Source: Psammoneis japonica (Eukaryota). From it: 20,000 nucleotides of DNA. A model generated the notes under the pieces. It was not told the origin of the DNA. It saw only the letters and a list, made by a program, of their open reading frames with translations, and ran no database searches. Position 1 is the stretch's first letter, and the number at the start of each line of letters is the position of its first letter. The stretch lies in NCBI GenBank assembly GCA_008632985.1, contig QPGO01000204.1:113248-133247 (forward strand), given 5' to 3'. A program made the translations under genes and the position numbers. Positions 1 to 20,000 of this stretch are shown one piece after another.

Positions 1-1050
1 TTGTCTGTTTGTGAGACAACATAGAGCGCACATGTGACGGTTGCGACCATGCGCGACATGTGGCTTGACAACTGCAGACATGTCTGTGGCCAGTCAAATG
101 CCAATCATTGGCATTTCCTGGAAAGATGTGGCTTGTCTGTCTGCCACAACAGCCCAATTTTGGCGGAAAGTGGCGGTTTGTTGCATGTGACAACCAAGGC
201 AAGCACAACAATTGGTGTTTGAAGGTCAATGCGTGTAGTTCACATGAAGGTCTAACAGCCCTGATGGGGGCTGGACACACTCATGTGTTTTTGGGGGTGC
301 TCAGAGGCTTCGCAAAACAACACGGGCAAAGCACAGGGAAATTTGAAAATCACGAGCCATTTAAAAGAACAGCAATGGGAGTGAAAATGCAGAATGAAGT
401 TGGCGTGCGGTTCAAGAAAAAAAGTCAAACACAAATCCCTCTGGCAATGGCATGAGACAAATGATGCGGTTGCAGCCCTGCGAACAGGGTGTGGCAGAAG
501 ATCATGCGATCAGTCGGTCAACGCGCCGCTTTGCAGCAATGCGCACCAGAGATAAAAGGTCAAGGAAAAATTGCACCAGAATGAGATCATTGCTTTCTTT
601 TGGAGAGGATTTAATGCACCCAAACCGCCACAGCAAGGACAATCACGTTAAGTGGAGAATTCAAAGTCAGTGCAACCTCTGAGAGAAAATCTTTGCCTCT
701 GAGGGAGAATCTTGTCTTCAACAAAGACTGACAGAATTTCACAATTGCATGGACCAGAACAACAGCATGCAGTTCACTGCTTGGAACAGTGATCTTGGTG
801 GGCCAGCAAGTGGAAAAGGGAATGTTCAGGACTTGCAAGGATGAAACAGGAAGTTGTGCTGATGTGACAAGAAGGTCGTTGGAAGAAATGTCATTCTCGT
901 GTAGAATTGACACTGAATCTTGCACAGAAAAGCCAATCCACGCAGCAAAAGGACGGTCGTCAGGTGATGCCAATGGTTCACCACAACAGGGACTGTGCTT
1001 TCACCACATGCACAAAGGAGACATGTTAGAAGCCATGCAAAGATAAAGTG

Positions 1051-1156
1051 GTGAGTTTGTGTTATGATTTTGCTCACAGTTGTTGACTCATCTTGAAATC
1101 TGTGTCTCAGATGTTCTCACTGCTTACACCCTCCCGTCTCTTTTGGCCTTCTACAG
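1051..1156 (+). other. Putative intron of a degraded host gene in the left flank
   Basis: GTGAGT donor, pyrimidine-rich 3' end, CTACAG acceptor, 106 bp. Confidence 0.45.
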
Positions 1157-1727
1157 CAACTGGCTTACAATCACCTGCCAGCATGGCAGTTTTTGGTGAT
1201 TGATGAACTGTGCAACAAACATTGGGTGTGTTGCCCTGACCATGGCAACGAACAAGGAGAGCCAGCATTCAATGTGTGGCTGGCTCGATCGAGCCGAGAG
1301 AAAGGATCAACATGTCCAATTGCAGGGTTCTGTTGTGGTGTGCTCAAAACGTCCCAACAAAAGATTCATTTTACAGTGTTGGATGGCCTTGGGAGTCGTT
1401 CATGCCGACAACCGCAATGGCTGCGAAACGATGGAGAGTGCCAGCTCTAGGAACAGCCAGGTCTGCTCTAGAGAGGCGCGCAGCCCATCATGCGGCAGTC
1501 TGTGTCCCGCGCCCCGGTGCGTGCTTGAAGACAATGGACAAAGCATGCCAACAACAACAAAAATGGCGAGAACGAAGAACCATCGATCATCGTTTGTGCG
1601 ATGGCGCACACGCACACACAAGAGCAGCAATTGCACCTGGAGAGCATCTAAAAACAACATTGGAAACATGTGGTAAGTTGACAACGCTCTGACTTTCAGT
1701 GACAATGCCATTTTTGAAGTTGCACCC

Positions 1728-1732
1728 CTCAA
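1728..1732 (+). repeat. Target-site duplication CTCAA (left copy; right copy 9153-9157)
   Basis: Identical 5-mer immediately flanking both LTR ends. Confidence 0.93.
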
Positions 1733-1987
1733 TGTCAATGTTCTGGGTTTCAATCGGAACTCGTGCGCGATCTCATGCGCGTCTCTGCTTCAAGACACAC
1801 ACCAAGACTGGCTCTTGTGTGCTGCAGTTTTTCATTCGATTTTCTCCTCACAATTTCAAGATGACAACAGTGCAACAACACCTTTTTTTTGGTCTCATCA
1901 CCTTGATCTGCCTCTGCCCAGCCAGATCAACCTCTCTTCGACCTCTTCACGTCGAAATCCCAATTGCTCCGTTCCTGAGTCATTGCA
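1733..1987 (+). repeat. 5' LTR (255 bp, contains no TpA)
   Basis: TGTCAA...TTGCA; aligns end to end with 8892-9152 (about 27 substitutions, one 7-bp and one 1-bp indel). Confidence 0.96.
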
Positions 1988-2000
1988 GGTTATGAGCCCA
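1988..2000 (+). other. Primer-binding site complementary to the anticodon arm of initiator tRNA-Met (half-tRNA priming)
   Basis: GGTTATGAGCCCA directly after the 5' LTR, complementary to GGGCUCAUAACC; same type as the Drosophila copia PBS GGTTATGGGCCCAG. Confidence 0.85.
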
Positions 2001-2115
2001 AGTGTCATGCTTGCGACTCTGCCGCATTGCGCCATCGTTTCCTCAAGAAGCGAATTCTCACCCCAGCACATCTAGGTGCATTTCCATGCACCACGTCGAC
2101 ACATTTCAGACGCTC

Positions 2116-2601
2116 ATGACAGAGACGCCATCTCTGGCAATGGACGAACTCATCACTCAACCAAACAACCTTCAGCTTCAGAGTGCTGAACTCCTGCGAC
2201 AAATCGAGGAAGAACGAGAATGGCCAGCCCACAATCCTCCTCCGACTGCCCCTTGAGAAGACACTTCAAGGGGAGAACTCACCACCCAAGACTTTCACGC
2301 AGGAGACCGCGTGTGCATCACGAACGAAATCCGTGGTGTCCGGTTCAGACAAGCAAACGTCCAAGACCGCCAGGCCACAGTCACTCAAATCACTGCCAAA
2401 CACGTCTTCGTACGCACGGACAACGGCAGCACAACAAATTGTCATCCAAAGAACCTTGTTTTCCTTGCCCAATCTCAAGATGACTACGAACGCTGCTCCA
2501 GTCTCTGCTCCCGACTCTGCCAAGACAGGGACGACTCCTCCTCCTTCGGTTGCGCAGACCAAGCTTGGCCAGGCCACTCCAACGACGACCGTCACGATTA
2601 A
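2116..2601 (+). pseudogene. Extra ORF upstream of gag (about 161 codons; N-terminal helix plus putative KOW/SH3-like beta domain), one in-frame TGA
   Basis: Track ORFs 2002-2256 and 2311-2601 share a frame and are split only by TGA 2254-2256 (likely CGA->TGA): MDELITQPNNLQLQSAELLRQIEEE...DFHAGDRVCITNEIRG...ATVTQITAKHVFVRTDNG...PKNL. Confidence 0.6.
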
Positions 2602-4027
2602 CGGCCGCACTGTTCAAGTTCGGAAACAGCCAGAAAACTCACTCTCAGATGACCTCAGCCCTGCACACGAAGAAGCAGAGGGAGACGCTTGCTCCAGACA
2701 AGCTCAACGACATCTTCTCTCATGCCACAGCACCCAAGCAGCAAACCAAATTTGACCTTCTTGACATCAACATCGCCGATCCTGACAAGTCAGAGGACAC
2801 CTGCGACTTCTCCATGTCGATCCAGACCATGCGCGCAAATCACATCAAGTGCAACATGGACGACATTTTCCAGGTCGTCGATCATGTCACCCTCAAGACT
2901 CGCAACTTGCACACCAACTGTTCGACTGTCACCGTTGCTGAAGTCACTGCGAGCAACAAGTGGCACTCCACCATGCTCGACAACCCGATGGCAAGTGGGC
3001 TTCTCAGAATCTGAACCTCACCTGTGATTGCGCCATCAAGCACGCTTCTCCACCTTTGACCAAGAAAGTCAACGAGACTTGCCTGCGTCATTCTAACGAA
3101 GAGCGCGGTGGACCGCTCCACTTCATCATCATGATGAAACTCCTTCAGAGCGACTCTGAAGAAGCCGCACTTTATCTCGTCAAGCTGCTCTCATTGATCA
3201 AAATCACCGATTTTGATGGCAAAGACATCAGCAAGGTTGTCTCGCTCATCCGTGGTGGTGTTTCTCGCCTCGAGAATCTCAAGGACCCCACCGGCAAGAC
3301 TTGCATCCCAACCGATTTTCTTGCTCAGCTGACAAAGGTCTTCCAGACTTCCAGCATGGCCAAATTCAACGGACTCTTTGATCATCTCTCCAAAAAGTCC
3401 AAACTCAAGAAGTTTGTTTCTGTGGCTGCTTCAACTTCTGCTTCTGTGCCTGTCGAATCGATTGCGAACCTCCTTGACATTGCCGAGCGCAAATGTCATG
3501 CTCTGTGCGCACGCGACAAGTGGTCCGGCGTGACCACCAAGGCCAATGCCTCCTCCTTTGTCGCGAGCATCCTCAGCAAGTGCTTTGGTTGCGGCACCGA
3601 AGGATGCTCTGTGGACAAGTGTCCCAAGCCTTGCGATGAAGCTCGCATCAAGGCCAACAAGAAGCTTTGTTTCGACACCAAGCACAACAAGTCCAAAGCC
3701 GCCTCACCGGGCAAGCCTGCCAAACAGCCCCCAGCGAAGTGGAAGCCTCCGACCGACGAGGAACGCAAGAACAAGAATCGCCGTGACATCGACGGCAAGG
3801 ATTGCTTTTGCCATTTCAAGACCAAACGTTGGAAGCCTGTCAGCGCCAACGTCGCTGCGCCGCCTCCTGCATCAGCTCCTCCAGCTCTTCCGACACCTCC
3901 TGCAGCTCCGACACCGGGTGCCGATGCTCGTGTCGCCGCCACTGAGGCAGCAAAGGAGCTCGCCATCGCTGACGCGACTCAGGCCATGCAAGACACCTTC
4001 CGTGGTCTCCTGGGCGCCTTCACTTGA
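2480..4027 (+). pseudogene. gag: gag, frameshifted
   Basis: ATG 2480 (MTTNAAP), frameshifts near 2660 and 2985; zinc-knuckle-like CFGCGTEGCSVDKC, basic/Pro-Ala-rich C-terminus, TGA 4025-4027; lies between PBS and pol. Confidence 0.8.
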
Positions 4028-4989
4028 CTTCCCGGGCGCGCCACTGCCCTGCTCCCCACTTGGCACACAGCCCACCCTCAACCACCCGATCCTGGAAGGG
4101 ACACCCAGGTTTGGCTCCATTGTTTGTGTCTGTGGTTTGTTGTTTCGTTTCTTCAAGAGGGTGATTTCGGACATTGCGTGCCATCTGACTGTTTTCAGCT
4201 GTTGTCTCCAGCAGTCATGGGATTGTCTTTCACATGCTGTTCTTTGCAAAGAAACCCACAATGCTGCACTTCTCCAAGCAACCTGCACACGCTGACTTCA
4301 TCTTCGAGCCAACCCCACAACCTGCTTCACCAACTCCAAATCGCCGACTGCCTCGAGCGAAGCAGCATCCACTGCATTTGTGTCATGCGGCGTCCTGTCC
4401 TGCATCCAACAAGGACTCCTCCAGTCTGTCTCTGGAAACCCTGGACTTGGACGTTCAAGCGCAGGACTCCAGCTCCTCCTCGAAATCTGGATCCCGAACC
4501 AGACAATCCCTCAAGACGTCTCACATTGCGCCATCGCCGACACTCAAGACGCTACAAGCGCCCAAGAGGGCACTGCTCCAATCGCTCCTGTCGGAACCCT
4601 CAATGTGAAAACCAGATCTTCATGCAAGGATTCAAACAACTGGTCCTCTGAACCAGATGACAATCCTGGCAACAAAGAATTCGCCCGCATTCGTCATCGA
4701 TTGCTCCATCAATCATGGATCATGCATGATCTACAATTTGGCATCAATCTGGACTCTTTTGTCAAGTCCATTGACCCACTGCGACAGCTCTGTTGCTGGA
4801 GAATCTTGACTGCTCCTGAAGTCCTCGAATCCATCAACAATCGCGATCCGTTTTGCTGTCTCACCACCACCTTGAGCAACAACGAGCGCCAAATTGTCAC
4901 CTCACCTCAGTTTGGTGGAATTGCCATGTTTTCAAAACAGGCAAAACACATTCAGACCGCTGGAACACCAAGGAAGAAAGAACATTTTC

Positions 4990-7900
4990 AAGCTTGCCTT
5001 TCTTCCACAAAAACGGACACTCCAATCATCCCAGATGCCGGCGCTTCATCCTCTTTAACCCCGCACATCTCACCAACTTCATTGGACCTCTTGAACCAGC
5101 TTCGCATGCCGAGATCAAGGGCCTTGCATCCAGTGCCCGCGTTGTTGGAAAAGGCACCGTCAAATGGGACATTGTCGACTGCTGGAACGTCACTCGCACC
5201 GTTCGGACAACTGCCTGTCACGTCCCTGACTGCTCAATCAGACTCTTCAGTCCTCAAACCCATTTCCAAGAGAATGAGAACAATGGATGCTGCCACATCT
5301 GTGGCAACAAGTCCATCCTCGAGCTGGCAAATGGCAACAAACTTGAGTTCCCCTGCAATGCTGGGAATGACTTGCCTCTCATGCTCACTGCTCATCCTTT
5401 CAAAGGCGGCATTGACTCCTGTCATGTTGCCCCACTTTTGGATTCTAACTGTTCATTTTTGTCAGTTGCTGCTCAGACAAATCAGAACATGACACCAGCT
5501 CAAAAGGAGCTCCTTCTCCTTCACCAGAAATTCGGACATGCTGGATTCCAGTGGATCCAATGCCTTTGCAAGATTCCCTGGAGTGAACAGCACAGCCAAG
5601 TGCTCAAGCCGCGAAACCCAACAACCAATTCATGCGATGCACCTCTCTGTGCAGCTTGCCAACTGGCAAAGCAACAACGACGCAATCCCGACCATCGCAG
5701 CACATCCAAACCTCAAGAAATGACCCTTCGTTCCAAGGATCTTTGCCCCGGACAAGGTGTCTCCATTGACCAGTGCATCAGCCATCTCCCTGGCTGCTTG
5801 CCCAAGTCAAAAGGAAAGGAAGCCCCAAGAACAAGTGCAATGGCGGCACACTTTTTGTCGACCATGCATCGGGCTACGTCCATGTCAACCATCAAGTTGG
5901 ACTCACTGCTGGCGAGATGCTTCATGCCAAGCAACGCTTTGAACAGCACTGCAACACCTTTGGAGTCCAGGTGCAGCACTGCCATGCTGACAACGCATCC
6001 TTCGGTTCCAAGGCATTCCAAAGTCACATCAATGACAACGGGCAGAAACTCACCTTTTCTGGCGTTGGAGCTCATCATCAAAATGGGGTTTCCGAGCGTG
6101 CACACAAACCATGACCTCATGGGGTCGAGCTCTGTTGCTCACGCCATCCTCATGTGGCCTGATCAAGCCAATCTCGAACTGTGGCCTTTCGCCATGGAAC
6201 ACGCCGCTTGCATTTGGAATCATTTGCCCCGTCAAGATTCCCGACTTGCTCCTGTCGAGATTTTCTCCGGCCAACGCTTGTGTGGGGTTGTCCCGCGTAC
6301 GTTCTCGACCCGAAACTACAAGACAACAAAAAGATCCCAAAGTGGAACGCACGATCTTGTCGTGGACAGCATCTGGGCGTCTCCTCAGATCACTCCATTG
6401 GCATCGGACGGATCCTGAATCCAAACACCGGTTTCACAAGTCCACAGCATCACGTGGTCCATGATGACCATTTTGCTTCAGTCCCAAATGCTGATTCCGG
6501 CGGCATCTTTCACAATGCTCCGTTTGACGCTGGATCCTTCTGACAATCCAAGACACGGCCAACCATGCCTCCACGATCATTGGTTGACTGCGCGCGAACG
6601 TGCGCATCGCAACTGCCACCGCCAGTGACAAAAAGCCAACAAATCCGCTGCCAAGAATGCCCAACCCGCCACCCAGGACATTTCTGACTCCTCTTCTGTC
6701 TCTGCTCCAGAGGAGTGACAACACCAAAACATCAAACTGACGATGATGCAGTGGACGTGGGAGCATTCACTCCAGAGGGAGCCAAACCTCCAGAGGAAGA
6801 GACAGACTCTCTGCCTCCACCGGAACCACCGGATGACAACGAGTTGTCTCTTGTGGATCATTTTGATCTGCCAGACGACGATGATGCCGTCGCAAGCAAC
6901 AACACGCCACAGCCATCACCTCCACTGCAAGATGTGCAACCACGACGACCACTCAGAGTGGCCGCACAAGTGGAAACCGTCACGTTTTATCAAATCGATG
7001 ATGGCTCACATGTCCTTCCCAAACACTGAGTCTCCACAAGCTCACAAGAACCCGAAACGGACGGTCAAGGCTGAATCCTCTGAACCAGCAATTCTTGATG
7101 TCCTTGCAATGGGAAAAGATCACTCACACTCTCCAATCTCGTGACCTCAGTGCAATGTTCAACATTCTGCGTGCCAATGCCGACATTGACCACAACACAG
7201 TTGAAGAATTTCACCCTTTGGCCTTCGCAGCAAAGGCAAACTCGGGGCTGACAACCCTGCTTGGGACCAAGCAATGAACGGACCAGACCGTGCAGCCCAT
7301 TTGAAGGCTTGCGACGTCAAACTGGATGCTTTGGCAAAAGGCAAAGACGCTTGGGATGTTGTGGATTGTGAAGATTGGATGAACGTCCTGCCATCTGCTT
7401 GGGCGTTCAAATGCAAACGATTTCCAGACAGTCGCATCAAGAAACACAAGGCTCGATTTTGTGTTCATGGCAACAAGCACTCGAAGGCATCGACCACTTT
7501 GACACCTTTGCTCCAGTGGCAAATTGGACAACTGTGCACCTCATGCTCATTCTGTCTCAAATCTTGCAACTCTCTACAAAACAGGTCGACTGTGTTACGG
7601 CTTTCGTACATGCTCCGATCGACAAGGACCCCGACTTCGACAAGTTGTCGCCAGAGGAACAAGCTCGTTCCGGCGTCTACGTTGAAATGCCTCGTGGCTT
7701 TGCGGAACCTGGGAAAGTCCCAAAGCTCAAGAAATCCGTCTGTGGACTCAAACAAGCACCGCGAAACTTCTTTTTGCACCTCAAGTCCAAACTAGAAGGT
7801 GCCGGATTCACCGCTCAAGACGACGTCGATCCGTGCCTCTTCATCTCGGACAAAGTCATCTGTCCAGTCTACGTCGATGACACCCTCTTCTTCTCTCCCA

Positions 7901-8864
7901 AGCAAGAGCACATCGATGAAGTCATTGAAAAGATTCGCCTTTCTGGACTCGCCATCGAAGAAGAAGACTCAGTCGCGGGATTTCTCGGCGTGCACGTCAA
8001 GCGCGACACCGATTCAGGTGCTGTCAAGCTCACCCAGAGCGGCCTGGCCCGCCGTGTCGTGGAAGCCCTGAACATGCCTCATCTCCCAAAGAAATGTGCA
8101 CCAGCAACTGCCACTCCACTCATTCAAGATGCCGACGGCGACCCTCCTGCAGGCGCCTGTGACCATGCAAGCGTCATTGGCATGTTGCAGCATCTCGCCG
8201 GCCACTCTCGGCCGGACATCTCGTGTGCAGTGAGTTCCGCTGCCCGCTTTGTTCACTCACCTGAACGCTCGCACGAAATTGCTTTAGAGCGGATTGGACA
8301 ATGTCTCAAAGGGACCCTCGACGAAGGTCTCATTTTGCGCCCAACCGGAAATCTCGATGTCGACGCACACGTCGATTCTGACTTCGCCGGTCTGTGGCCA
8401 CACGAAGACAAGCAAGACCCTGCGTGTGTCAAGAGCCGCTCATTTGTGTCTCCAACTGTCCCATCATCTGGACAAGTAAACTCGCTCCCGAAATCGCACT
8501 CTTGACGATGGAAGCCAAGCACAACGCTCTGTCCTTCTGTGTGAAGAGCGTTCTTCCGTTTCAACGCGCCGTGTGCTGCATCTCTGAGTGCACCGGCATT
8601 GGCACCTGCATGTCTGCCACCTTCAAGACTGCTGTCTGGGAGGACAATGCCGGAGCTCTGACTCTCGCGAACATGGAACCTGGTCGGATCACTCCGCGAT
8701 CCAAGCACTGTGCTGTCAAGTGCCGCTGGCTCCGGTCCCATCTCAAGCCCAACGATGTCACTGTCCAGAAGATCTCTACCGATCTGCAAAGGGCAGATTG
8801 CCTAACCAAAGGGCTTACAAGGGACGCATTCGAGTCCATTCGCAAACTACTCTGTGGATGGTAA
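4990..8864 (+). pseudogene. pol: pol (protease, integrase, reverse transcriptase, RNase H), multiply frameshifted
   Basis: PR IIPDAGAS (~5025-5050); HHCC LHQKFGH...CAACQLAK; IN core SIDQ/ADN/HHQNGVSERA, WGCPAYVL; RT KARFCV, FAPV, GLKQAPR, VYVDD (7867-7881), SRPDI; RH DSDFAG, WEDNAGA, QRADCLTK; stop 8862-8864. Confidence 0.95.
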
Positions 8865-8882
8865 TTGATCTCTCACTCGTTC

Positions 8883-8891
8883 GAGAGGGAG
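8883..8891 (+). other. Polypurine tract
   Basis: GAGAGGGAG immediately before the 3' LTR. Confidence 0.88.
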
Positions 8892-9152
8892 TGTCAACAT
8901 TCCGGGTTTCAATCCGAACTCGTGCGCGATCTCGCGCGTATCTCTACTTCAAGATACACATCAAGACTATCTCTTACGTACTACAGTTTTTCATTCGATT
9001 TTCTCCTCACAATTCACAATTTCAAGATAATAACAGTGTAACAACACCTTTTTTCAGTCTTATCACCTTGATCTGCCTCTACCTAGCCAGATCAACCTCT
9101 CTTCGACCTCTTCACGTCGAAATCCCAATTGCTCCGTTCCTGAGTTATCGCA
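8892..9152 (+). repeat. 3' LTR (261 bp, 14 TpA)
   Basis: TGTCAA...TCGCA, preceded by the PPT and followed by TSD CTCAA. Confidence 0.96.
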
Positions 9153-9859
9153 CTCAACATGCTTTCATCGGTTGCTGCTGCAGACGAATTCTGGCGACGC
9201 TTCCAAAGGTCCTGCATCGAATTTGCGTCTCCTCTACCAGCTGCCACAGTCAATCACGGGTATGTTTTGCAGTTCCAATGGAGAATTCGCTGCTGCTTGT
9301 CAAGTAGTAACGCCGTCACCAACATTGGTACCGTCGGCGGCAACCAGCAGTAGCCTGTATGGCTCTGCTTGTCTTGTCATGCGGGTTTATGCCATTGCAA
9401 CGAGTTTGTTCATGGTCTTTACTACAATGGTTTGAACCATTGCTAACGAGCGGAGCAGGATTGGGGAAAAACTAATGGTCAATTTCTCAAAGTATTGAAA
9501 GGGGACGTGAAGAGGGATCGAGACGCAGACACATGAACAGGCGGTTTCAGAGCAGTTAAATTTGTTTGTTCGATTGCAATGGCGGCCAAAAATACACGAG
9601 GCCCGAAAGGAACGTTCAAAGACGAAATCGAGGGGAAAAAGGGTGCCGTAGTAGCCTCGATGATGCACGAATGTCTACCACAAACAGCTGGACTCGAAGG
9701 CAGCATGGTTAAGTATCATATATGGAGAAAATTGTGTCATGCTTCTCTACTGGCACCGGTAATTTGGATAATGCTCAATCCGAGTAAGAAAATGGCGATG
9801 AATTCGACGAGAGCTTGCCAAGAATATTCCCCTCTCCAAGTTTGAATGGAAGTTACGTT

Positions 9860-10708
9860 ATGTGGCGAAGAAGGGAACTGCTTTCGGTCGACTCTTTTGC
9901 TTTACTTTAAGATACCGTACGACACCAGTGACGAGCATTGTCTGAATCGAATGGTGATGATGTAATGTACGGGTGTTTCTCGCACGTCCCGTGGCGAGAA
10001 TAATCCATACTTAAACTGTAAGCTTGGTCTCAAATATGGGAATCTCAGTTTGGGTATGAGAAAGTTTGCAAAATGCAGGCCTCAGCGAGAAAAGGGAAAA
10101 GGCTGGGGGCTCGTTGCCGTCAACGGTGCAGAATGGGGTGAGCTCATTCAGGAGTACACTGGTTAAGTTATCGACGAAGAAAGAACGAAGAAACGCCTTG
10201 AAGCATGGGCTAGAGACCGTCCAAACGACGCCATTTTCTACGTGATGTATCTTGACACCGGCTGGTACATTGATGCGAGCAATGAGGCCAACAGAGTTGA
10301 TTCGTTAATCATTCGTTTGATCCAACCTGCAAACTGGTCCGAGTCAATGTTGGAGGGTACTTGCACGTTGCCATCAAATCCTGTATGAACATTGTTCCTG
10401 GAGAATTTCTGATTTACGACTACCAGTTTGATACAAGGGATATTTACAAGTTTCTCTGTAGATGCGGTGCTGCTAAACGTCAAGGCACCTTGGTGGGAAA
10501 GGAGTTCCAAGATTGTGCCGAGCAGAAAACAAAGGGACAGGAATGAGGAGGTGCGAGGGTACGCTTGTACCGCGACAAGACATTTCTTGAGGACCTTAAG
10601 AGACACGCAGCACACAGACGTTTGCATGTTTCAGATCTTGTGCCGTGTACTACCAAGACGAGACCGTTGCGAGTGGACCGCAAGATTGCGATCGAGAGTT
10701 TGCAGTGA
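9860..10708 (+). pseudogene. AWS-SET-postSET histone lysine methyltransferase (Set2/NSD/ASH1-like, H3K36 class) pseudogene
   Basis: CLNRMVMM*CT...GKGWGLVA...ELIQEYTG*VID...FYVMYLDTGWYIDA...FVNHSFDPTC...GEFLIYDYQF...FLCRCGAAK; TAA at 9963-9965 and 10164-10166, frameshift ~10295, TGA 10544-10546. Confidence 0.9.
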
Positions 10709-11008
10709 AAAGCAGGCTGTTCTTGTGTCGTAATGTCGTTCTGGGGGCTGACTTCTCGGCAAGGTGCTTATCACTGGAGAAAGCTTGCAAAAAGTCTTGA
10801 TATACATGAAACAATGAAGCGATAGGCATCTTTTCTCTCTTCGAAAGGGCGTCTTAGTGGAGGTTCTTGTGAACACTCCCTGTACCGAGTGTTTTGTACA
10901 TTCAGAAAAGTTGAATGTGCTCTGTATCCTTATCTTCTACATACTGGTGGCGCGATTGGAGGTGACGCTGCTTCTTGGGATGGTACAGTAGTGATAGATA
11001 CCTGGAGT

Positions 11009-11228
11009 GGCGGCGGCGGTTGCGGCGTACCATAACGAAGAAGAAGTTGGGATGGACCTGCTGCTGCTAACCTTGGACCTTCTGCTGCTAACCTTGGACC
11101 TACGAAAGTAATATAGTAATTTGTGGTGATGCTTGGCGGCGGCGGCGGAGCATAACGAAGAAGAGGAATTTGGGATGGACCTGCTGCTGCTAACTTTGGA
11201 TCTACGAAAGTAATTGGTGGTGATGCTT
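11009..11228. repeat. Imperfect tandem repeat (about 126 + 94 bp units, internal 21-bp duplication); also in copy 2 (~14494-14713)
   Basis: GGCGGCGGCGG...CATAACGAAGAAGA...GGGATGGACCTGCTGCTGCTAAC...TACGAAAGTAAT...GTGGTGATGCTT occurs twice. Confidence 0.85.
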
Positions 11229-11730
11229 ATGGGCCACGAAGCATTGCAGAGCATAATAGACCTGGACCAAGAATACACGGTGACGACACGTACGGCCCTG
11301 CTTCTCTAGCATTCTAGGAACCCCTGTGGATACCCGAGATGGTCTGGACACGTATTGAGCATGGGCCTGGACCTTACGCACGCCGAAGTGTTGGGAACAC
11401 GTACGGACCCGGGCGTGGAATGAGTGCAGATCGATTTCGCCTCCTAGACTAAGTGAGGTGATTCGTACGGACCATCACAGCCACACGCACCTCGTGTCCT
11501 ACCACACACTCATACGGTTTGGTGTAAGGTATGCTCTCTAGAACAAAAATCCCGAGCTTACTGCCGCTGCTCGCTCTTGCGATCGCAGCTTCTCTTGCAT
11601 TATGTGGTACTCGTACAGAAGGGCGAGTAGCGATACCACAGAATTCAAAATCACCTTGCTACCTGTCTCTATTTTAGCAAATTACAAAAATAGTATAAGT
11701 ACAAGTGCTACAAGTGCCGCACATTTTGAC

Positions 11731-11850
11731 TTTCCCGAATATTGCATGTCGTATTTCCTGAATAATGCATGTCGTATTTTCCGAATACTACATCTTGCAT
11801 TCCCAAAGGTTTTTCGTTGCATTCCCCGAACATTGCACGGTGCATTCCCC
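11731..11850. repeat. Degenerate ~23-bp tandem array (about 5 units); also at ~15224-15343
   Basis: TTTCCCGAATATTGCATGTCGTA / TTTCCTGAATAATGCATGTCGTA / TTTTCCGAATACTACATCTTGCA / TTCCCAAAGGTTTTTCGTTGCA / TTCCCCGAACATTGCACGGTGCA. Confidence 0.75.
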
Positions 11851-13474
11851 TTTCCCAAACACATCACATGGTCATTGTTGCTCATGATGCCCGAGCCTCC
11901 CTGGCTGCCACCCATGACATGGACAACATTGTTGAGCACCTGCAGGTAAAGTGCATCCGTCGCCTTGGTCCTGTCGCAACCACCTGATCGACTCAGAATG
12001 CCAAGAAATTATAGAGGAGGGGTTGTTCAAGGAATTAGAGAGCCCGTCTATGTAACAAAGGAAGCTGCTATGGGCAATACAAGGAAACAAAAGAGCAATT
12101 CAAGGACGTGAGGACCCGCAAGCATGTGGACTCAGACTTCTGTGAATCTTGCACCTGTAGCCAAATCGATGCAAAGCACAGTTGCACCCCTCGTTTGTAA
12201 CTCAAAGGGGCTTTATCGAGTCCCTCATACCATCATAATCGAAATGTAACTATGACCAGTAGAGAACAGATGTTGATGCGAGTGTTTTCTCGGCATGCTG
12301 GGGTTTGCCAGTTCAATCTGTCGTGGCATGTTGCCTCTCCTCGAGGTCGTGGCATGTAGCTCCTAGTCGCAATTAACCATTAACAGCACTAGACTATATT
12401 ACTTTGTCAAATTACTCATTGATAAACCCATTCTCACCATTGCAGCAATGATTTCTAGCGCTTGGAGCCTTGCAGAGAGAACCACCTGCACACACCAAGT
12501 TCCGGATCAATCCTGCTTTCGGGCCTCAATGTCACTAATTGTGTTTGTTGACTTTTGACATTGCTTATATTCAATGCACTCCTATGTGTTAGATGCTTCC
12601 TGGACTATTGTAAAGTATTCAATCTATATTGATAACGAACTACGCATCTTTCCGTGCATGCAAAACGATGGAAACAGGTGTCCGACAAAAGGGTTCCGGC
12701 CAGCTATCGTCATTTACCTGTCGCTGGCAGCATTTTCTACAGTTTGATCCCGATCTTAGAAACATTGACCGTTTAAAAACGCCTCTTTGCAGACAATATG
12801 AACAATTTAAGCCGTGCTCCGAATCGATTTGGTTGGAGCTAGCACGTTCGTGGGATCCGAGGTGGAACTGCTTGAGGCTCCTCAGAAACTCGCATGGACT
12901 TTTGACACCTGATAACCACCCAGGATCGTCTCACTTAGTCATATAGGGAGGCGTTTGAGCCATTAATTGAAACTTTTGGATGGTTTAACACAGGCATTGA
13001 GTCGATTTGATTGTCGCAAATGATCGTGACAAGCAAGAATTGCCGCGCTTGCTTTTGTTTTTGACACGGAAAACACTGCCAAAGAAAGAGCTTATCCCTT
13101 TAAAAGTCATCTTTATCGAGTATATCGTCCATGACATGGGTACCTACATAATGCATTACATTTTAGACCTCCAAAACATTTGCTGTCGTGCCGGATGCAG
13201 AGGAAACAAAGAAATTGAGTGAAAAGTTCAGATGATGATCAAAGGCATTGAATGAAGATAACATGCTTTATTACCCATACCTTATGATCATAATGAGGTT
13301 TAAACATACTCTCCAGGTGATTCTTACACTTGGTGTTAAATATTGCCGCCGCCGCAACCGATCCCATGGTCGACTTCAGTTGCGTCGCGTGTCGCGTTTT
13401 GGAAAGAAGAAGTTGATTTTATGGGTTATGAGCGTTTTAGTCGAAACGCGCGGACGTGGCCCAAAAGCATCGTG

Positions 13475-13529
13475 ATTGTCCCATAATTGTCCCATAATTG
13501 TCCCATAATTGTCCCACAATTGTCCCACA
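13475..13529. repeat. 11-bp minisatellite x5
   Basis: (ATTGTCCCATA)3(ATTGTCCCACA)2. Confidence 0.95.
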
Positions 13530-13665
13530 CCCTCCATGCCGAATGCCGACACGCCGACACCGAGATAAAGAGTAATTTGAGAAATGCCCAAGTCACGACC
13601 ACAACGAGGATTCAAAGGTCAGGTGAGCCAATCATACCACTCAACCCTTGTTCCTGCCAACAAAA

Positions 13666-14194
13666 AAAGAACGAAGAAACGCCTTGAAGCATGGGCTAGA
13701 GACCGTCCAAACGACGCCATTTTCTACGTGATGTATCTTGACACCGGCTGGTACATTGATGCGAGCAATGAGGCCAACAGAGTTGATTCGTTAATCATTC
13801 GTTTGATCCAACCTGCAAACTGGTCCGAGTCAATGTTGGAGGGTACTTGCACGTTGCCATCAAATCCTGTATGAACATTGTTCCTGGAGAATTTCTGATT
13901 TACGACTACCAGTTTGATACAAGGGATATTTACAAGTTTCTCTGTAGATGCGGTGCTGCTAAACGTCAAGGCACCTTGGTGGGAAAGGAGTTCCAAGATT
14001 GTGCCGAGCAGAAAACAAAGGGACAGGAACGAGGAGGTGCGAGGGTACGCTTGTACCGCGACAAGACATTTCTTGAGGACCTTAAGAGACACGCAGCACA
14101 CAGACATTTGCATGTTTCAGATCTTGTGCCGTGTACTACCAAGACGAGACCGTTGCGAGTGGACCGCAAGATTGCGATCGAGAGTTTGCAGTGA
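13666..14194 (+). pseudogene. Duplicated C-terminal fragment of the SET-postSET pseudogene
   Basis: FYVMYLDTGWYIDA..., GEFLIYDYQF...CRCGA; same frameshift as copy 1, but CGA where copy 1 has TGA. Confidence 0.85.
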
Positions 14195-15357
14195 AAAGCA
14201 GGCTGTTCTTGTGTCGTAATGTCGTTCTGGGGGCTGACTTCTCGGCAAGGTGCTTATCACTGGAGAAAGCTTGCAAAAAGTCTTGATATACATGAAACAA
14301 TGAAGCGATAGGCATCTTTTCTCTCTTCGAAAGGCGTCTTAGTGGAGGTTCTTGTGAACACTCCCTGTACCGAGTGTTTTGTACATTCAGAAAAGTTGAA
14401 TGTGCTCTGTATCCTTATCTTCTACATACTGGTGGCGCGATTGGAGGTGACGCTGCTTCTTGGGATGGTACAGTAGTGATAGATACCTGGAGTGGCGGCG
14501 GCGGTTGCGGCGTACCATAACGAAGAAGAAGTTGGGATGGACCTGCTGCTGCTAACCTTGGACCTTCTGCTGCTAACCTTGGACCTACGAAAGTAATATA
14601 GTAATTTGTGGTGATGCTTGGCGGCGGCGGCGGAGCATAACGAAGAAGAGGAATTTGGGATGGACCTGCTGCTGCTAACTTTGGATCTACGAAAGTAATT
14701 GGTGGTGATGCTTATGGGCCACGAAGCATTGCAGAGCATAATAGACCTGGACCAAGAATACACGGTGACGACACGTACGGCCCTGCTTCTCTAGCATTCT
14801 AGGAACCCCTGTGGATACCCGAGATGGTCTGGACACGTATTGAGCATGGGCCTGGACCTTACGCACACCGAAATGTTGGGAACACGTAGGGCCCTACGGA
14901 CCCGGGCGTGGAATGAGTGCAGATCGATTTCGCCTCCTAGACTAAGTGAGGTGATTCGTACGGACCATCACAGCCACACGCACCTCGTGTCCTACCACAC
15001 ACTCATACGGTTTGGTGTAAGGTATGCTCTCTAGAACAAAAATCCCGAGCTTACTGCCACTGCTCGCTCTTGCGATCGCAGCTTCTCTTGCATTATGTGG
15101 TACTCGTACAGAAGGGCGAGTAGCGATACCACAGAATTCAAAATCACCTTGCTACCTGTCTCTATTTTAGCAAATTACAAAAATAGTATAAGTACAAGTG
15201 CTACAAGTGCCGCACATTTTGACTTTCCCGAATATTGCATGTCGTATTTCCTGAATAATGCATGTCGTATTTTCCGAATACTACATCTTGCATTCCCAAA
15301 GGTTTTTCGTTGCATTCCCCGAACATTGCACGGTGCATTCCCCTTTCCCAAACACAT
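13666..15357 (+). repeat. Direct segmental duplication, copy 2 (1692 bp)
   Basis: Matches 10180-11864 (offset 3486 to 3493). Confidence 0.97.
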
Positions 15358-15383
15358 TGAGGACGAGTCGTATCGATTCGAAA

Positions 15384-16552
15384 TCAAGGCAAAGGGAGTC
15401 CGGCCTTCTTGCGTTGGGAACGAGTCATACGGGCCGGAGTCTCGGCAGCCTTCTTGCGCGGGGTCTCGAACGCAGTATCACCTGCAACAGTGACCTTCTT
15501 CTCGGGGGTGACATCGGTGCTGGGCTCTGGGGTAGTAGCGCCATTCGCCACATTTTCCTTGGCCGCGGTGGCGCCGCTGTCCTTCTTGCTCCAGCTCATA
15601 CGACGAGGCCACCAAGAGCCGCCATTGGCAGTTCCGTCCTTGTTGGCAACGTTGGTTCCTTCCGAGACGGCAGCGACGGTAGACGTCTTCTCCTTCTTTT
15701 TCTCCTTCTTATCTACTTTGAGTTGAAGAAGCCCGCTGGCAACAGAGAAACAGAATCGACGTTGTGAGCACAACAAAGGACAATGGACTGTGGAGGCTGG
15801 CATGGCACTTACAGCTCTTCAGTGATCACCGCCTCTTTCTTTTTTGTCTGTAGACTTTCCATCCGAGCTTCAATGAGATCTTTCTCTGCGGCCTTTTCAT
15901 CCCTGATGAGGCTGACATGCAAGTCGGTCCCCTTCTGGGCTTGTGCCGCAAAGACAGACGCAGAGTCGAGGTGCTTCTGCTCATTTTCCACGAGCTTCTC
16001 GCGCAGCTCTTTGTTTTCCTTCGCATTTTGCACGGAGACTTTAGCCATCTCTCGCATCAAATCATTGTTGGCCTTGAGCTCTGGTTTCGCGTCTTTCCGA
16101 CGACCGACCGCGTTGAGGTTGGCCTCGATCAAGAGAGCTTCCGTCTGCTTCTGCAACTCAGCCTCCGTGGCAAGTCTATCCTTCTTGAGCTTCATTTTCG
16201 CAAGCTTGGTGTCGGTGTCGTCGGAGGCTGCACTCTCCGGGGTACCATCAGCATCATGGTTGGTGGCAGCTATGGCGGCCGCCTTGGGCCCCGGCGTGAC
16301 GACCTTGGCGGGAAGAGAAGGCATGCACTTGTCACGAGCAACCTTCCAGCGGGGCTTGCTCTTGGATAGCCATCTTCCCACCTTCGCTTCCTCGCCCGGA
16401 AATTCATCGTGGAGCTCAGGAATCATCGCATACAATTCCGACGCTGGGAAGCCGGGCACGAAGATGTAATCCAACTCTCCACGAATGGCGGGATCGACCA
16501 CTAACCTGCGCATCGTAGGGTTCTTAGAGTATTTACAGGATGAAGTACTCAT
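15384..16552 (-). CDS. Two-exon hypothetical protein, about 363 aa, central coiled coil and Lys-rich C-terminus; join(16552-15813, 15735-15384)
   Basis: ATG 16552 (MSTSSCKY); 77-bp intron 15812-15736 with GTAAGT donor and CCAG acceptor joins ORFs 15809-16648 and 15384-15803 in frame (EEL|GLLQLKV); 1092 nt, no internal stop. Confidence 0.82.
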
Positions 16553-16699
16553 CTTGGAGATAGATACAGTGATCGTAGTCGTAGGAACCGAAAGAGCAGG
16601 GACCGAAAGAGCAACAACGTTTGATACGCCGCAACAATGACAGGTCATCGAGGACTCGTTTTCGATCGTTCCATCTCCCGAGCGCCGGCCTCGGCGACG

Positions 16700-16930
16700 T
16701 TATTTTTGAACAGAATATGAAGAAATATTAATGAAGTGAGTATAATGATATGGAAATCAAGCTGGCCGGATGATTTATATATTAGTCCCTTTCGGTTGTA
16801 TATGGATTTTGAATTATTTGTAAACCTTCATGGTACAAGGATTGAAAAATAACATTATCTATGGACTCTAAGGTAGTTTAATTATGAATATTGCAGTAAA
16901 GCTTCCTATAAGAAATCACGTAGGTAGACA
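16700..16930. promoter_or_regulatory. AT-rich intergenic region between divergent genes (possible bidirectional promoter)
   Basis: AT/TA-rich stretch between ATG 16552 (-) and ATG 17042 (+); position-based inference only. Confidence 0.35.
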
Positions 16931-17041
16931 AGCTACTCAGATACACGCATCGATCGAGAACGGCACGACTATCAACGGAAAAAACAAATATTGGAACCTG
17001 CGCGCGACACGCCCCATGCATCCCATCCGAATCCATTCACA

Positions 17042-17570
17042 ATGTCACTTCTGGAAGTGCTGCGACGACGGAAAATGACGACGACACCCGGCGCTGTGCC
17101 TCCTCAGATCCTATCTGCGTTGGAGGAGCTTCGCACACCCTCGAGCTACTTCAATTCAGAAGAAGCAGCAGCCGATCTTGTCTTGTTCTGCGCATGTGAG
17201 GACGAAATCTCTCAGTCGCTCACCGAAGCCGGATTTCTTGAGACAATCATTGGTGCAATGGATCACGATGGGCAAAGCAACTCCTTTTGCTTGTGTGTCA
17301 TTCATGTGCTCAGCAAATTTGTGCAGTCAAAGGAGGACAATGCAGAAGAAATCCTTGGAAAGAAAGGCGGTCTCAAAAGAACAGTTTGTCTGATGGACAC
17401 ATTTGAGGAGAGAGTCTGACAAAGACATTCAAATGCTGGGAGTTTTGTGCCTCTTTCATCTCACAAAAGAAACCAGAGGAAAAAGCATGGTTGAAATGGT
17501 GGCAAGCATCATGGAGTGCATTGCCACAGCCACAGAAACTCACAAAGACCCTGTCTTGATTGCTGGTTTT
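17042..17570 (+). pseudogene. Armadillo/ARM-like helical-repeat protein, decaying toward its 3' end
   Basis: MSLLEVLRRRK...EAGFLETIIGAMDH...VIHVLSKFV...GGLKRTVCLMDTF, frameshift ~17410, then SDKDIQMLGVLCLFHL; ARM-like GG/AG-hydrophobic helix pattern. Confidence 0.55.
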
Positions 17571-20000
17571 GGTCTTTGTTTTTGTTTTTGTTTCATGATC
17601 ATTGCTTCAATGCTTCGGTGCAAAAGACATCTTGAGTTTTGCCTCTTGAGCCACCCACTTGATGTTGAGGTTTCTGCAAAGAACTGCTTGTGCTGTGGCT
17701 GGTTGAAAGGTTGCCCACACTCTTGTGGCTCACAGCTTGAGGCATGATGGAGTCAGCAGTTCTCTGTGCTTGACCTTTGCCCATCAGACTCGCTGTCACA
17801 ATGTGCCTTCTCCTGTTGACACCATTGTCTCCATCAAAGTCCAGAGTCCAGACTGCCCCAGCCATTGGCAAAACAGGAGCTTCTGTGGAACTTTTCTGCC
17901 TGCTTCACTGCCACAAAGCAGCTCTTGGCAACAATGCCACCCCCACATCATGCCTGGCTGCAGCAAAGGACTGTCTTCCAAGCTGCCATCTGAGATGCCC
18001 AACTTGGGTTTGTGCTGAACTCTTCACTCTTCCCGTCACAAAAACAAGGTGTTTCTGGTTCTGATGGCAATGTGCTGGAGCCTTCCTGCACAGCTTCCCA
18101 GGTGCACACCAGTGCCTCCAGAGTGCCAGCCCAGCCACAACAGCTGCACCATCTTTGCTGGGGCTTTGCCAGCAGGTCGCTGTGCCAAGGCTGCCACAGT
18201 CTTGGACAACAGCAAGTCAAAGCCGATGCAGCCATGACAGTGCTTTGTGGTGCCATCAGCATGGAGTGGTGTGAGCTTGCTGGACTGCCCGACCCTGCAT
18301 GCCACATCCCCTTGCAGTTGAGTGCCAACCTGAGAGACACAGTCATGAAGAATCCCTGCCCAAGCCAAAGCTGGAGCTGGCATGTGAGCCCCTGTTGGCA
18401 CCCCATGCTGCACTGCTGCAAAATGGCACAAGCTTCCTGAAGCTTGCTTGTGTTGGTGCTGCTGCCATGGGCCAACTTGTCAACACACCACTCTGCCCCC
18501 CAACACAAGCAAGATGGTGCGCACTTTTCTGCAGCTCTGGCTGGGATGACAGATGTGCACTCCAAGCAAACTGCAGTGCATGCTCCCAAACAACAGCCCG
18601 TTGAAGGTGCTTCTCATGTCTCTGGCTGATGCCAGCCTGTGGTTGGCTGTCAAAAAAGCAGGGGTCAAGAAGGACAGATCATCAGCTGCAGGAGAGCATG
18701 AGTTCCCTGCCATGTGCTCAGCAACAAGGCACTGGCACATTGGAAGCACCACAGTTGTGTGGGTGTGGGTGGGGGGGCATGACACCACTTGCAAGTGTGG
18801 CTGCTCAGGTCAAGTGACCCACCTGAGACATGTGCGCATCCACAAACGGCTGGGAAATGCTGCTGGCAAGAAGGGCCTCTTGGAGGTGCAGCCACCCTTG
18901 GTCACAAAGAAGCTTGCAAAACTCTGGCTCTGGCTGTGTGTTTAAAAAGTGAAAAAGCTTTGAGTGAAGTTTGGTTTGAGAGTCATCAAGCATGCAAATG
19001 ACAGCTGCTTCCTGCACAGCAGACTGCTGCCTCTCATTTTTTCTCAAGAGCTTGCTCAGAATGCAGGGTCCAAAGCAAGCAGTCAAGCTGGCAAGTGTTT
19101 TCTTCTCCCCAGCCCTGTGCAAATGCAATGGCACAACTTGAACAGCCAAACTGTGCTGCCAGAGGAGCACACGTGGAGTTGGCAGCTGGCCTGGGGCTGC
19201 CAAGCTGGCAAGGTGCTCCGCTTGGTGGCGCACAGCACACTCAGTTGCTCTCACATTGTCACCCTGCAGCTGCACCATGCACACCCACCCTTTGAACCAG
19301 CAGCAACCACCCCAGTCAGTGAAGAAGATGCCAACAAATCTCTGGCCCTGCTTCTGTGGTTGATTTTGTGTGCGTTCTCAATGGCTTCAATCCCCTCCTT
19401 TTTCCTTCTTCCTTTTTCCCTTTGGTCTGGCCAGGAACATGAAAAAATTGCCAACAAAATTTGAACCATTCACAATTTTTGGCATGCAAACAAATGTGTC
19501 TTCAGAGCTGATGGTGACAAGAGGTGCTCACAATGAGACCCAATGGAGCAAGACAGATGCTCTGGTGCAAAAGCTTAAAAGATGATGGATCATTTCATGC
19601 AAGGCAAAAAGTCATCAGACATTGCAAGATGTTTGCAGCAGTGCTTGTGGTGGCAACTTTTGGTGGGTGGGTGTGCTTTGATGCTGCTTTTCAGTCTGGG
19701 GTTGGCTCTTGTCATCCTCTGGTCCAGCAGCTGCAGCTGCACATTGTCCCACACACAAGAAAGTCTTTCATGCTGAAGTGCTGCCAGCACAAGAAGCAGG
19801 TCTGACCGTCTGCAAGCACACAAAAAATCAAGCCCAGCTGCTGGCTGCCCGCCCCTCTCATCATCCAAGCAGACAAGGCATGAGGCTCTGTGTTTGGCAT
19901 CTCTTTTTGCCACCTTTCAAGAAGCCAGTGCCAGCATTGCACACATGTTGGAACACTCCGTTGGTTCTTTCAGGCACCAAGAAATGCCCATCATCTCCAG
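17150..20000. other. TpA- and CpG-depleted, TG/CA-rich hypermutated domain; original identity unrecognisable beyond ~17570
   Basis: Only 2 TA dinucleotides (18943, 19576) in about 2850 bp; under 20 CG in 17400-20000 by manual count. Confidence 0.9.

Follow-up and report, generated by a model that had tools for sequence, protein, structure and literature searches.

A Ty1/copia retrotransposon insertion in Psammoneis japonica bears the trace of a probable regional, TpA-specific hypermutation after integration

A 20,000-nucleotide stretch of DNA from Psammoneis japonica (GenBank assembly GCA_008632985.1, contig QPGO01000204.1, positions 113,248 to 133,247 of the forward strand; hereafter the window) carries a complete Ty1/copia retrotransposon insertion at positions 1733 to 9152. 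Most of this insertion, together with the DNA to its left, has lost nearly all of its TpA dinucleotides. The pattern is very probably explained by the insertion of a copia element of the diatom "CoDi" type, followed by a regional hypermutation, specific for TpA, of the chromosomal block in which the element had come to lie. The direction of the change, its confinement to TpA, its occurrence on both strands, its timing after integration, and the sharp regional limits of the affected DNA are each documented below by comparisons within the window and with related elements.

Results

TpA has been erased from two blocks of the window

The ratio of observed to expected TA dinucleotides lies between 0.00 and 0.15 over positions 1 to 8760 and again over positions 17100 to 20000, which means that TpA is nearly gone from both blocks. 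From 8777 to about 17000 the ratio takes ordinary values of 0.5 to 0.9, with 366 TA counted between 9166 and 17050. Inside the first block it is 0.07 over positions 5025 to 8760 and stays between 0.00 and 0.10 in each 1-kb interval from 1501 to 7001, the TA counts being 19 for positions 1 to 1730 and 23 for positions 1731 to 8500. Between 1733 and 8760, the 23 TA that are left compare with 390 predicted from base composition alone and with about 242 predicted from the median TA ratio of related elements (0.62). CA/TG over positions 5025 to 8760 amounts to 1.35 to 1.57.

The erased DNA is raised in G+C, and TAA and TAG triplets have gone from it, falling to 3.8 per kb (both triplets together, six frames) in 1733 to 8760 versus 39.0 per kb in 8777 to 17000. 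Because TAA and TAG each need a TA, the erased blocks keep TGA as their sole stop codon. Open reading frames (ORFs) consequently stay open in all frames, and frames of at least 100 residues pile up on both strands. A preliminary description, made from the sequence alone, had argued that the process destroys proteins without needing stop codons, and these counts bear it out.

Conserved residues give the direction of the change

The residues of 70 full-length relatives were mapped to the codons of the pol region, with the better-supported frame taken where frames overlap, and a column was considered conserved if at least 30 relatives covered it and at least 80% of them agreed. Among the 480 columns so defined, 418 are unchanged in the window. 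The losses fall very unevenly, since only two of the 13 conserved Tyr residues are kept (six have become Cys and five His), versus 416 of the 467 other residues (Fisher p = 4.6e-9). The preliminary description had proposed that the fraction of converted Tyr be counted; it is 11 of 13.

The 62 altered columns comprise 14 that fit TA to TG, seven that fit TA to CA, 13 that fit CG to TG or CG to CA, eight other transitions, 10 transversions, and 10 columns for which more than one change is needed. Thus, 21 changes fit the loss of TpA, versus three A-to-G or T-to-C changes outside TpA. All five Thr-to-Ala changes, including the one that turns the protease DTG triplet into DAG, affect codons preceded by T. 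A second, weaker process, CpG to TpG or CpA, has also contributed and accounts for 13 of the 62 altered columns.

TA must be the ancestral state, and TG and CA the derived ones, because Tyr, which is encoded only by TAY, reads as Cys (TGY) or His (CAY) at 11 of 13 columns, because the relatives keep Tyr at these columns, and because all 14 TA of the 3′ long terminal repeat (LTR) read TG, CA, or CG in the 5′ LTR. This polarity had been claimed in the preliminary description and is upheld by all three comparisons. That intact relatives also carry Cys or His at the conserved Tyr positions, which would have refuted it, is contradicted by 206 of 216 homologues, which keep six or seven of seven such residues in the reverse transcriptase (RT).

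Most of the individual motifs that had been read as altered agree with the relatives. The Cys residues of KSVCGLKQ and CLKGT stand where 70 of 70 relatives have Tyr, the two His residues of HASVIGMLQHL where 68 and 69 of 70 have it, and the second His of SPQHHVVHDD (position 6460) where 53 of 60 have it. PVYVDD, with the codon CCA, replaces a Leu found in 53 of 70 relatives. For the protease triplet, the relatives show Asp in 34 of 34, Thr in 31 of 34, and Gly in 34 of 34 cases, and the codon of the window reads T|GCC, consistent with T|ACC to T|GCC. Three further readings fit a Tyr ancestor but are not proven by the relatives, which are divided between Tyr and Phe at the His of GIDHF (Tyr 36, Phe 31), the Cys of RPDISCAV (Phe 34, Tyr 27), and the His of AHVDSDFAG (Tyr 43, Phe 25). 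A Leu-to-Pro change at the first residue of PDAG is merely possible, as the relatives have Ile in 21, Leu in seven, Val in four, and Phe in two cases. In contrast, KHKAR must be withdrawn as an instance of Tyr to His, because Leu occupies this position in 61 of 70 relatives and Tyr in four of 70, and this is not a Tyr position in the copia family considered here.

The order of TG and CA events along the 21 column sites, counted by hand, gives 13 runs versus about 10 expected, and thus shows no sign of strand-coherent bursts, although this sample is small and biased toward events that change an amino acid.

The LTR pair places the change after integration

An insertion starts out with two identical LTRs, the U3 portions of both being copied from one stretch of RNA. 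The insertion is bounded by a 5-bp target-site duplication, CTCAA, read directly at 1728 to 1732 and found again as five identical bases directly after the 3′ LTR at 9153 to 9157. Because this duplication is intact on both sides, the two LTRs belong together. The 3′ LTR (8892 to 9152) is essentially unmutated and holds 14 TA and 15 CG. The 5′ LTR (1733 to 1987, TG...CA) aligns to it and holds no TA at all.

Every one of the 14 TA of the 3′ LTR is altered in the 5′ LTR, where seven read TG, six read CA, and one reads CG. Among the 15 CpG of the 3′ LTR, nine are kept in the 5′ LTR and six are changed, five of the latter reading TG or CA. At two further sites the LTRs differ as CA versus TG. Elsewhere the pair differs by just three substitutions and two indels in about 255 bases. 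Because the LTRs start out identical, yet the 5′ LTR alone is fully TA-erased, the change occurred after integration, on chromosomal DNA. Editing before integration cannot give this asymmetry, because the U3 of both LTRs shares one RNA template. The contrast between 14 of 14 TpA sites and three other substitutions puts the TpA rate about two orders of magnitude above background; TpA change was at least about 100 times faster than ordinary substitution.

Both strands were struck about equally, the TG:CA split on one strand being 7:6 in the LTR and 6:5 at the Tyr codons. A double change to CG occurs only once among the 27 polarised sites formed by the 14 LTR sites and the 13 Tyr columns. On reasoning alone, such doubles would be expected to be rare if each strike removes the TpA context and the strands segregate at replication.

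The limits of the erased block are not those of the element

The right edge of the first erased block lies at 8709 to 8777, in the terminal, RNase H part of pol. Position 8709 (TGT) marks the last of the conserved Tyr codons to be altered; TA is absent between 8477 and 8777, and a dense series of TA then begins at 8777 and continues with 8803, 8816, 8848, 8862, and onward. The edge is therefore less than 70 bases wide, and the edges of both blocks are narrower than 150 bases. The erased block stops about 90 bases before the pol stop codon and 115 bases before the 3′ LTR.

On the other side, erasure continues past the insertion into its left flank (1 to 1732), which is TpA-poor (observed/expected 0.12 to 0.19) with CpG at about 0.5, and in which no Pfam family was found. 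Positions 1 to 1334 of this flank form a high-copy repeat, with a summed contig depth in sequencing run X1 of 1041 to 1888 versus about 35 to 40 for single contigs. The limits of the block are thus regional and do not coincide with those of the element, because erasure takes in the upstream flank but leaves out the 3′ LTR and roughly the last 90 bases of pol. The change had originally been placed at 5025 to 8760; that interval is indeed erased, but the block spans from the start of the window to about 8760, and erasure recurs at 17100 to 20000.

Erased TpA is unusual among relatives, and a few other copies carry the same trace

The TA observed/expected ratio lies between 0.43 and 0.90 in 79 of 80 related metagenome loci (median 0.62), and erased TpA is therefore not the normal composition of the family. 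TA occurs 7.3 times per kb in the RT region of the window versus 20.7 to 85.0 times in 77 relatives. The exception among the 80 loci is a metagenome contig, L016, with a ratio of 0.21. Its positions 1 to 1693 hold a related copia fragment that shares its polypurine tract and LTR start with the window element. L016 is TpA-poor (0.12 to 0.14) up to about position 1500, through the end of pol, and becomes normal from about 30 bases into its 3′ LTR. We observed that this contig has very few TA yet keeps four of seven conserved Tyr, unlike the window; this could mean that selection was acting while the mutation pressure was on.

The seven conserved Tyr columns of the RT tell the same story among 216 homologues. 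Besides the 206 that keep six or seven, five keep five, two keep four, and the three lowest keep three (P0239), one (P0076), and none (P0028). The choice between Cys and His differs column by column between P0028 and P0076, and these two are independent victims of the process that struck the copia element of the window. All three are "proteins" that entered databases as predictions from further copia copies that had been hypermutated, and P0028 has no Tyr in 555 residues. The RVT_2 profile comparison that the preliminary description had suggested orders these sequences in the same way, with 78.5 to 79.3 bits for the window, 91 to 92 for P0028 and P0076, and 107.5 to 127.9 for seven of seven intact relatives scanned. 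Together with the column comparison, this gap in score addresses the question for which an in silico reversion of TG and CA to TA had been suggested.

Contigs from sequencing reads reproduce the erased sequence

Contigs of run X1 with depths of 34 to 37 match the window at 2193 to 2680, 2733 to 3286, 5655 to 6202, and 17265 to 19280 with no base differences, and two of them show gaps (one and three, respectively). The longest match reaches 2016 bases, a single contig covering 17265 to 19280. Because these contigs reproduce the sequence without base differences, the erased pattern is not a consensus artefact. Paralogous contigs differ from the window at 128 to 145 places per transition type, versus 16 to 37 places per transversion type. 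Of the 29 such differences listed for the erased blocks, four are CA-versus-TG pairs and three are sites with TA on one side and TG or CA on the other.

Structure of the copia insertion

All parts of the insertion lie on the forward strand. A putative primer-binding site is assigned at 1988 to 1999 from its position directly after the 5′ LTR. The presumed gag region (2100 to 4300) is assigned by its position between LTR and pol and contains open frames at 2120 to 2755 and 2942 to 4027; no Pfam family and no tblastn match to homologues was found in it. The pol region (4382 to 8864; protease, integrase, RT, and RNase H) is frameshifted and ends with a TAA stop codon at 8862 to 8864. In tblastn comparisons, 70 full-length relatives are colinear with it over 4382 to 8861, with frame changes near 5070, 5790 to 6300, 7045, 7245, 7480 to 7558, and 8440.

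Within pol, the protease active-site triplet (5034 to 5042) reads D-A-G instead of D-T-G. A GAG-pre-integrase domain, the zinc-binding part of integrase, matches at 5486 to 5674 (PF13976, E = 3.7e-4) with 20.7 bits, which is below the cut-off, and intact relatives score alike at 20.8 to 24.3 bits. The C-terminal SH3-like domain of integrase (SH3_retrovirus, PF25597, E = 9.4e-6, 25.9 bits) lies at 6280 to 6471 and holds the Tyr-to-His change at 6460. The RT core (RVT_2, PF07727, 78.5 bits) extends from 7486 to 8103, and the Tyr of its YVDD motif, at 7870, survives. Both integrase domains are upstream of RT, and the parts follow the order protease, integrase, RT, RNase H. A polypurine tract, GAGAGGGAG, read directly at 8883 to 8891, adjoins the 3′ LTR.

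The insertion is a Ty1/copia LTR retrotransposon of a diatom CoDi-like kind. Among the 240 matches listed, the proteins closest to its RT and RNase H are environmental sequences, up to 71% identical, and the named RT relatives are all copia polyproteins of pennate diatoms (Seminavis, Cylindrotheca, and Nitzschia), 54 to 60% identical. No relative of its RT was found in viral contigs. With its frameshifts, its DAG protease, and the loss of 11 of 13 conserved Tyr, this is a dead copy.

Surviving TA, unmutated repeats, and the second erased block

The few TA that survive are not a random sample. In comparisons made post hoc, a pyrimidine precedes 36 of 46 of them versus 166 of 385 TA in unmutated DNA, and eight of the 23 survivors within the element touch a CpG versus 49 of 385 in unmutated DNA (p = 0.008). 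This bias hints at a preference for flanking bases or at shielding by methylated CpG. Both surviving conserved Tyr codons (7678 and 7870) lie within an identical octamer, GTCTACGT, likewise noticed post hoc, and this octamer could be a shielding context.

Several repeats lie in DNA that kept its TpA. Direct repeats of about 1.6 kb at 10174 to 11800 and 13660 to 15294, spaced about 3.49 kb apart, are about 99 to 100% identical over the 300-nucleotide stretches compared, and both have a normal TpA ratio. A 1.3-kb high-copy repeat at 12007 to 13340 is not TpA-erased either. Summed X1 contig depth over this repeat and over 1 to 1334 is 500 to 1900 versus about 35 to 40 for single contigs. Multi-copy sequence thus occurs in both kinds of DNA: the copia element and 1 to 1334 are erased, and the repeat at 12007 to 13340 and the 1.6-kb pair are untouched. 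A SET domain (PF00856, E = 2e-5) is represented in each 1.6-kb repeat by its C-terminal part, seemingly broken by a frame change. This fragment was the only Pfam match among 91 ORFs scanned outside the copia element, and the SET-domain ORF at 13787 to 14194 gave no match to longer proteins.

The second erased block (17100 to 20000) contains four TA (observed/expected 0.00 to 0.03), with CpG at 0.09 to 0.12 from 17501 on and CA and TG at 1.7 to 2.1 times expectation. No Pfam family above threshold and no retroelement protein match was found there. At the transition into this block, 22 CpG are packed into about 270 bases (17001 to 17270). TpA stops near 17150, but CpG turns sparse only after about 17270, and the two depletions therefore have no common edge. 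The block begins within or just past an ORF at 17039 to 17419 on the forward strand, for which the Protein Atlas indicates ARM/HEAT-type repeat features (score 0.96), a lead at the level of features only. A neighbouring ORF has a weak ZER1-like Pfam match (E = 0.0024, below the cut-off). The ORF at 18964 to 19461 was not recognised by the Protein Atlas.

Discussion

A model for the erased block

The observations are consistent with the following course of events, which we regard as very likely. A Ty1/copia retrotransposon of the diatom CoDi type would have inserted, creating a 5-bp target duplication and two identical LTRs. Later, hypermutation confined to TpA would have affected a chromosomal block that begins beyond the start of the window, runs through the upstream repeat, the 5′ LTR, gag, and almost all of pol, and ends sharply at about 8710 to 8777. 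Each event would be an A:T to G:C transition at TpA, giving TG if the A of the upper strand changed and CA if that of the lower strand did, with both strands used about equally and about 90 to 100% of sites converted. The outcome for the proteins would be Tyr to Cys or His, Thr to Ala at T|ACN codons (the protease DTG among them), Leu to Pro at CTA codons, and the loss of TAA and TAG stops. A slower decay of CpG to TpG or CpA, the usual mark of cytosine methylation, would have proceeded in parallel. We infer that the agent was enzymatic and served as a defence against foreign or repeated DNA, by analogy with the process described below for the alga Bigelowiella natans. Its chemistry would be the deamination of adenine in DNA to hypoxanthine, which the following round of replication reads as G.

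Because TpA is self-complementary, adenine and thymine chemistry leave an identical trace: A to G after T and T to C before A yield the same TG and CA products. Oxidised thymines mispair, and there is a link between enzymes of the TET/JBP type and transposons. The regional process acting after integration may have worked through the T of TpA, oxidised by a TET/JBP-type enzyme to 5-hydroxymethyl- or 5-formyluracil, which pairs with G and gives T to C, a version of events that we consider improbable. The window itself discriminates neither chemistry; the authors of the B. natans study favour adenine deamination, with an ADAT2-like candidate named on prediction only (bioRxiv 10.64898/2026.01.13.699255).

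Dedicated machinery would be dispensable if TpA decayed slowly, as a neutral, context-dependent process in old, silenced, unrepaired DNA. CpG decay, which is slow, does occur in the same blocks, and the block lowest in CpG (17100 to 20000) is also lowest in TpA. However, within the LTR pair, 14 of 14 TpA sites have changed as compared with six of 15 CpG and three other sites in about 255 bases; the edge at 8709 to 8777 is sharper than 70 bases; and the neighbouring DNA has a normal TpA ratio. Slow decay is therefore very unlikely to account for the pattern.

Hyper-editing before integration, either of the element's RNA by an ADAR/ADAT-like A-to-I activity or of its cDNA by a deaminase, has precedents that make it worth weighing. 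The B. natans preprint notes in its Discussion that ADAR-type enzymes favour a U on the 5′ side of the A that they edit (bioRxiv 10.64898/2026.01.13.699255), and APOBEC-edited retroelements have become fixed in vertebrate genomes (PMC4866542). Nevertheless, editing of a single strand yields only one product, whereas TA to TG and TA to CA are near-equal on one strand of the window. Of the two LTRs, which share a template, only the 5′ one is fully changed; the erased DNA extends 1.7 kb upstream of the element, past an intact target-site duplication; and the second block matched no retroelement protein or Pfam family. Asymmetric LTRs, two polarities, and an erased flank all speak against pre-integration editing, which we judge highly improbable.

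Least credible of all is an artefact, with modified bases misread and polished into the assembly, or selection for TA avoidance: no library type is recorded for run X1, whose reads may be the assembly's own data, but read-derived contigs of up to 2016 bases at depths of 34 to 37 show no base differences, catalytic and conserved residues are destroyed and frameshifts are present, which is the opposite of selection, and other copies with the same trace (P0028, P0076, and L016) occur in independent public data.

Some points weigh against the model of post-integration TpA hypermutation. The untouched repeats show that repetition alone is evidently no trigger, or that the unmutated repeat copies are too young. 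That the process is an active one, and that it serves defence, are both deductions from the pattern rather than parts of it. Gene conversion by an unmutated copy, acting on the 3′ end, is in principle another source of the difference between the LTRs; the intact target-site duplication speaks against an exchange from one element to another, but not against a conversion inside one. In the RT region (7480 to 8442), the coding strand contains 31% C, and 41% C at third codon positions. The overall value (0.31) is above that of all 77 relatives (0.12 to 0.293) and the third-position value above that of the 26 tabulated relatives (0.11 to 0.38). This C-richness exceeds what TpA loss explains and may reflect a codon bias of the family or host. 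Finally, because run X1 may be the data from which the window was assembled, its contigs may not amount to independent proof.

We put forward more tentatively, as a proposal that may well fail, that TpA-directed A:T to G:C hypermutation is a widespread and ancient genome defence of microbial eukaryotes and not something peculiar to a single chlorarachniophyte. In the window it would have acted in a diatom/stramenopile host, on LTR retrotransposons, to saturation; it would be laid over silenced blocks rather than over repeats as such, with an adjacent CpG, perhaps methylated, partly shielding TpA, and would operate through a DNA adenine deaminase.

Implications

To our knowledge, there is essentially no natural enzyme known to mutate adenine in double-stranded chromosomal DNA. 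A saturated case on a diatom-type retrotransposon would extend TpA hypermutation to a second, ecologically dominant group, and the LTR pair with its intact target duplication is clean evidence from nature for an action on integrated DNA and on both strands. The pattern also matters in practice. Because TAA and TAG stops are absent, gene finders call long false ORFs in erased blocks, and public databases already contain "proteins" without Tyr, P0028 for example. The building of repeat-family consensus sequences and the dating of insertions by LTR divergence would be badly misled by erased blocks. If found, the responsible enzyme would be of interest for base-editing technology.

Comparison with known systems

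The window element is of the CoDi type described for the copia elements of diatoms by Maumus et al. 2009 (PMC2806351), with which it shares 5-bp target-site duplications and TG...CA LTRs. The full text of that study contains no mention of RIP (repeat-induced point mutation), dinucleotide, hypermut, or point mutation, and a 2025 preprint on diatom transposons (10.1101/2025.10.24.684338) mentions none of RIP, dinucleotide, hypermut, deamin, or TpA. A literature search whose coverage left out most subscription journals found no report of TpA hypermutation in diatoms.

As in the hyper-editing of retroelements and viruses by APOBEC or ADAR (PMC4866542, PMC8586724), the transitions are clustered, of a deaminase type, and crippling to retroelements, and the process shares with ADAR the preference for U or T before the edited A noted in the Discussion of bioRxiv 10.64898/2026.01.13.699255. 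Those enzymes act on one RNA or cDNA strand before integration, with a single polarity, whereas the window shows both polarities, unlike LTRs, and an erased flank.

RIP of Neurospora and other Ascomycota likewise introduces dinucleotide-specific transitions at the DNA level, after integration and on both strands, and inactivates transposons in place within limits that need not match those of the element (PMC7296669, PMC2621366). However, RIP converts CpA to TpA (C:G to T:A) and so creates TpA and stop codons, whereas in the window TpA is destroyed and TAA and TAG vanish. RIP is triggered by duplication; in the window, the erased DNA comprises multi-copy sequence, and the near-identical 1.6-kb repeats are untouched. 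Fungal RIP itself was considered as a candidate and is ruled out by the opposite direction of change, the TpA ratio of 0.07, the CA/TG values of 1.35 to 1.57, and the Tyr-to-Cys/His changes. The process appears to work like a mirror image of fungal RIP, with the same logic but the opposite direction and target.

The closest parallel, and the sole direct report of TpA-specific hypermutation that we found in the literature, is a 2026 preprint on the rhizarian alga B. natans (Mettrop et al. 2026; bioRxiv 10.64898/2026.01.13.699255). Of 231 mutations that the mutation-accumulation lines of this alga acquired in two viral inserts, 230 were A to G or T to C. All of these fell on TpA, as the paper states, at a rate about 1000 times background, and the process is active in only some lineages. 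TpA-poor coding sequences of B. natans are enriched for reverse transcriptase and transposase domains, and the authors suggest, from prediction only, that an ADAT2-like protein deaminates adenine in the DNA.

The window matches every testable feature of the B. natans process. In both cases the changes are exclusively TpA to TpG and TpA to CpA on both strands, they occur in discrete blocks of foreign or mobile DNA amid an ordinary nuclear genome (here 1 to 8760 and 17100 to 20000), and TpA is depleted over the long term with a gain of CpA and TpG. The two cases differ in what is seen. In B. natans, de novo mutations were measured in giant-virus and virophage inserts that are still only mildly depleted (the giant-virus insert has a TpA ratio of 0.45, and TpA frequency in the virophage insert shows no depletion), whereas the window is a saturated fossil with ratios of 0.00 to 0.15. 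The target here is a Ty1/copia element whose named relatives, among the matches listed, are all from diatoms and none from B. natans. We rate the window as a new, saturated example of the phenomenon, on an LTR retrotransposon and probably in a second major algal lineage. It adds an LTR pair with an intact target-site duplication that fixes the timing, a sharp edge within the element, and a co-occurring decay of CpG.

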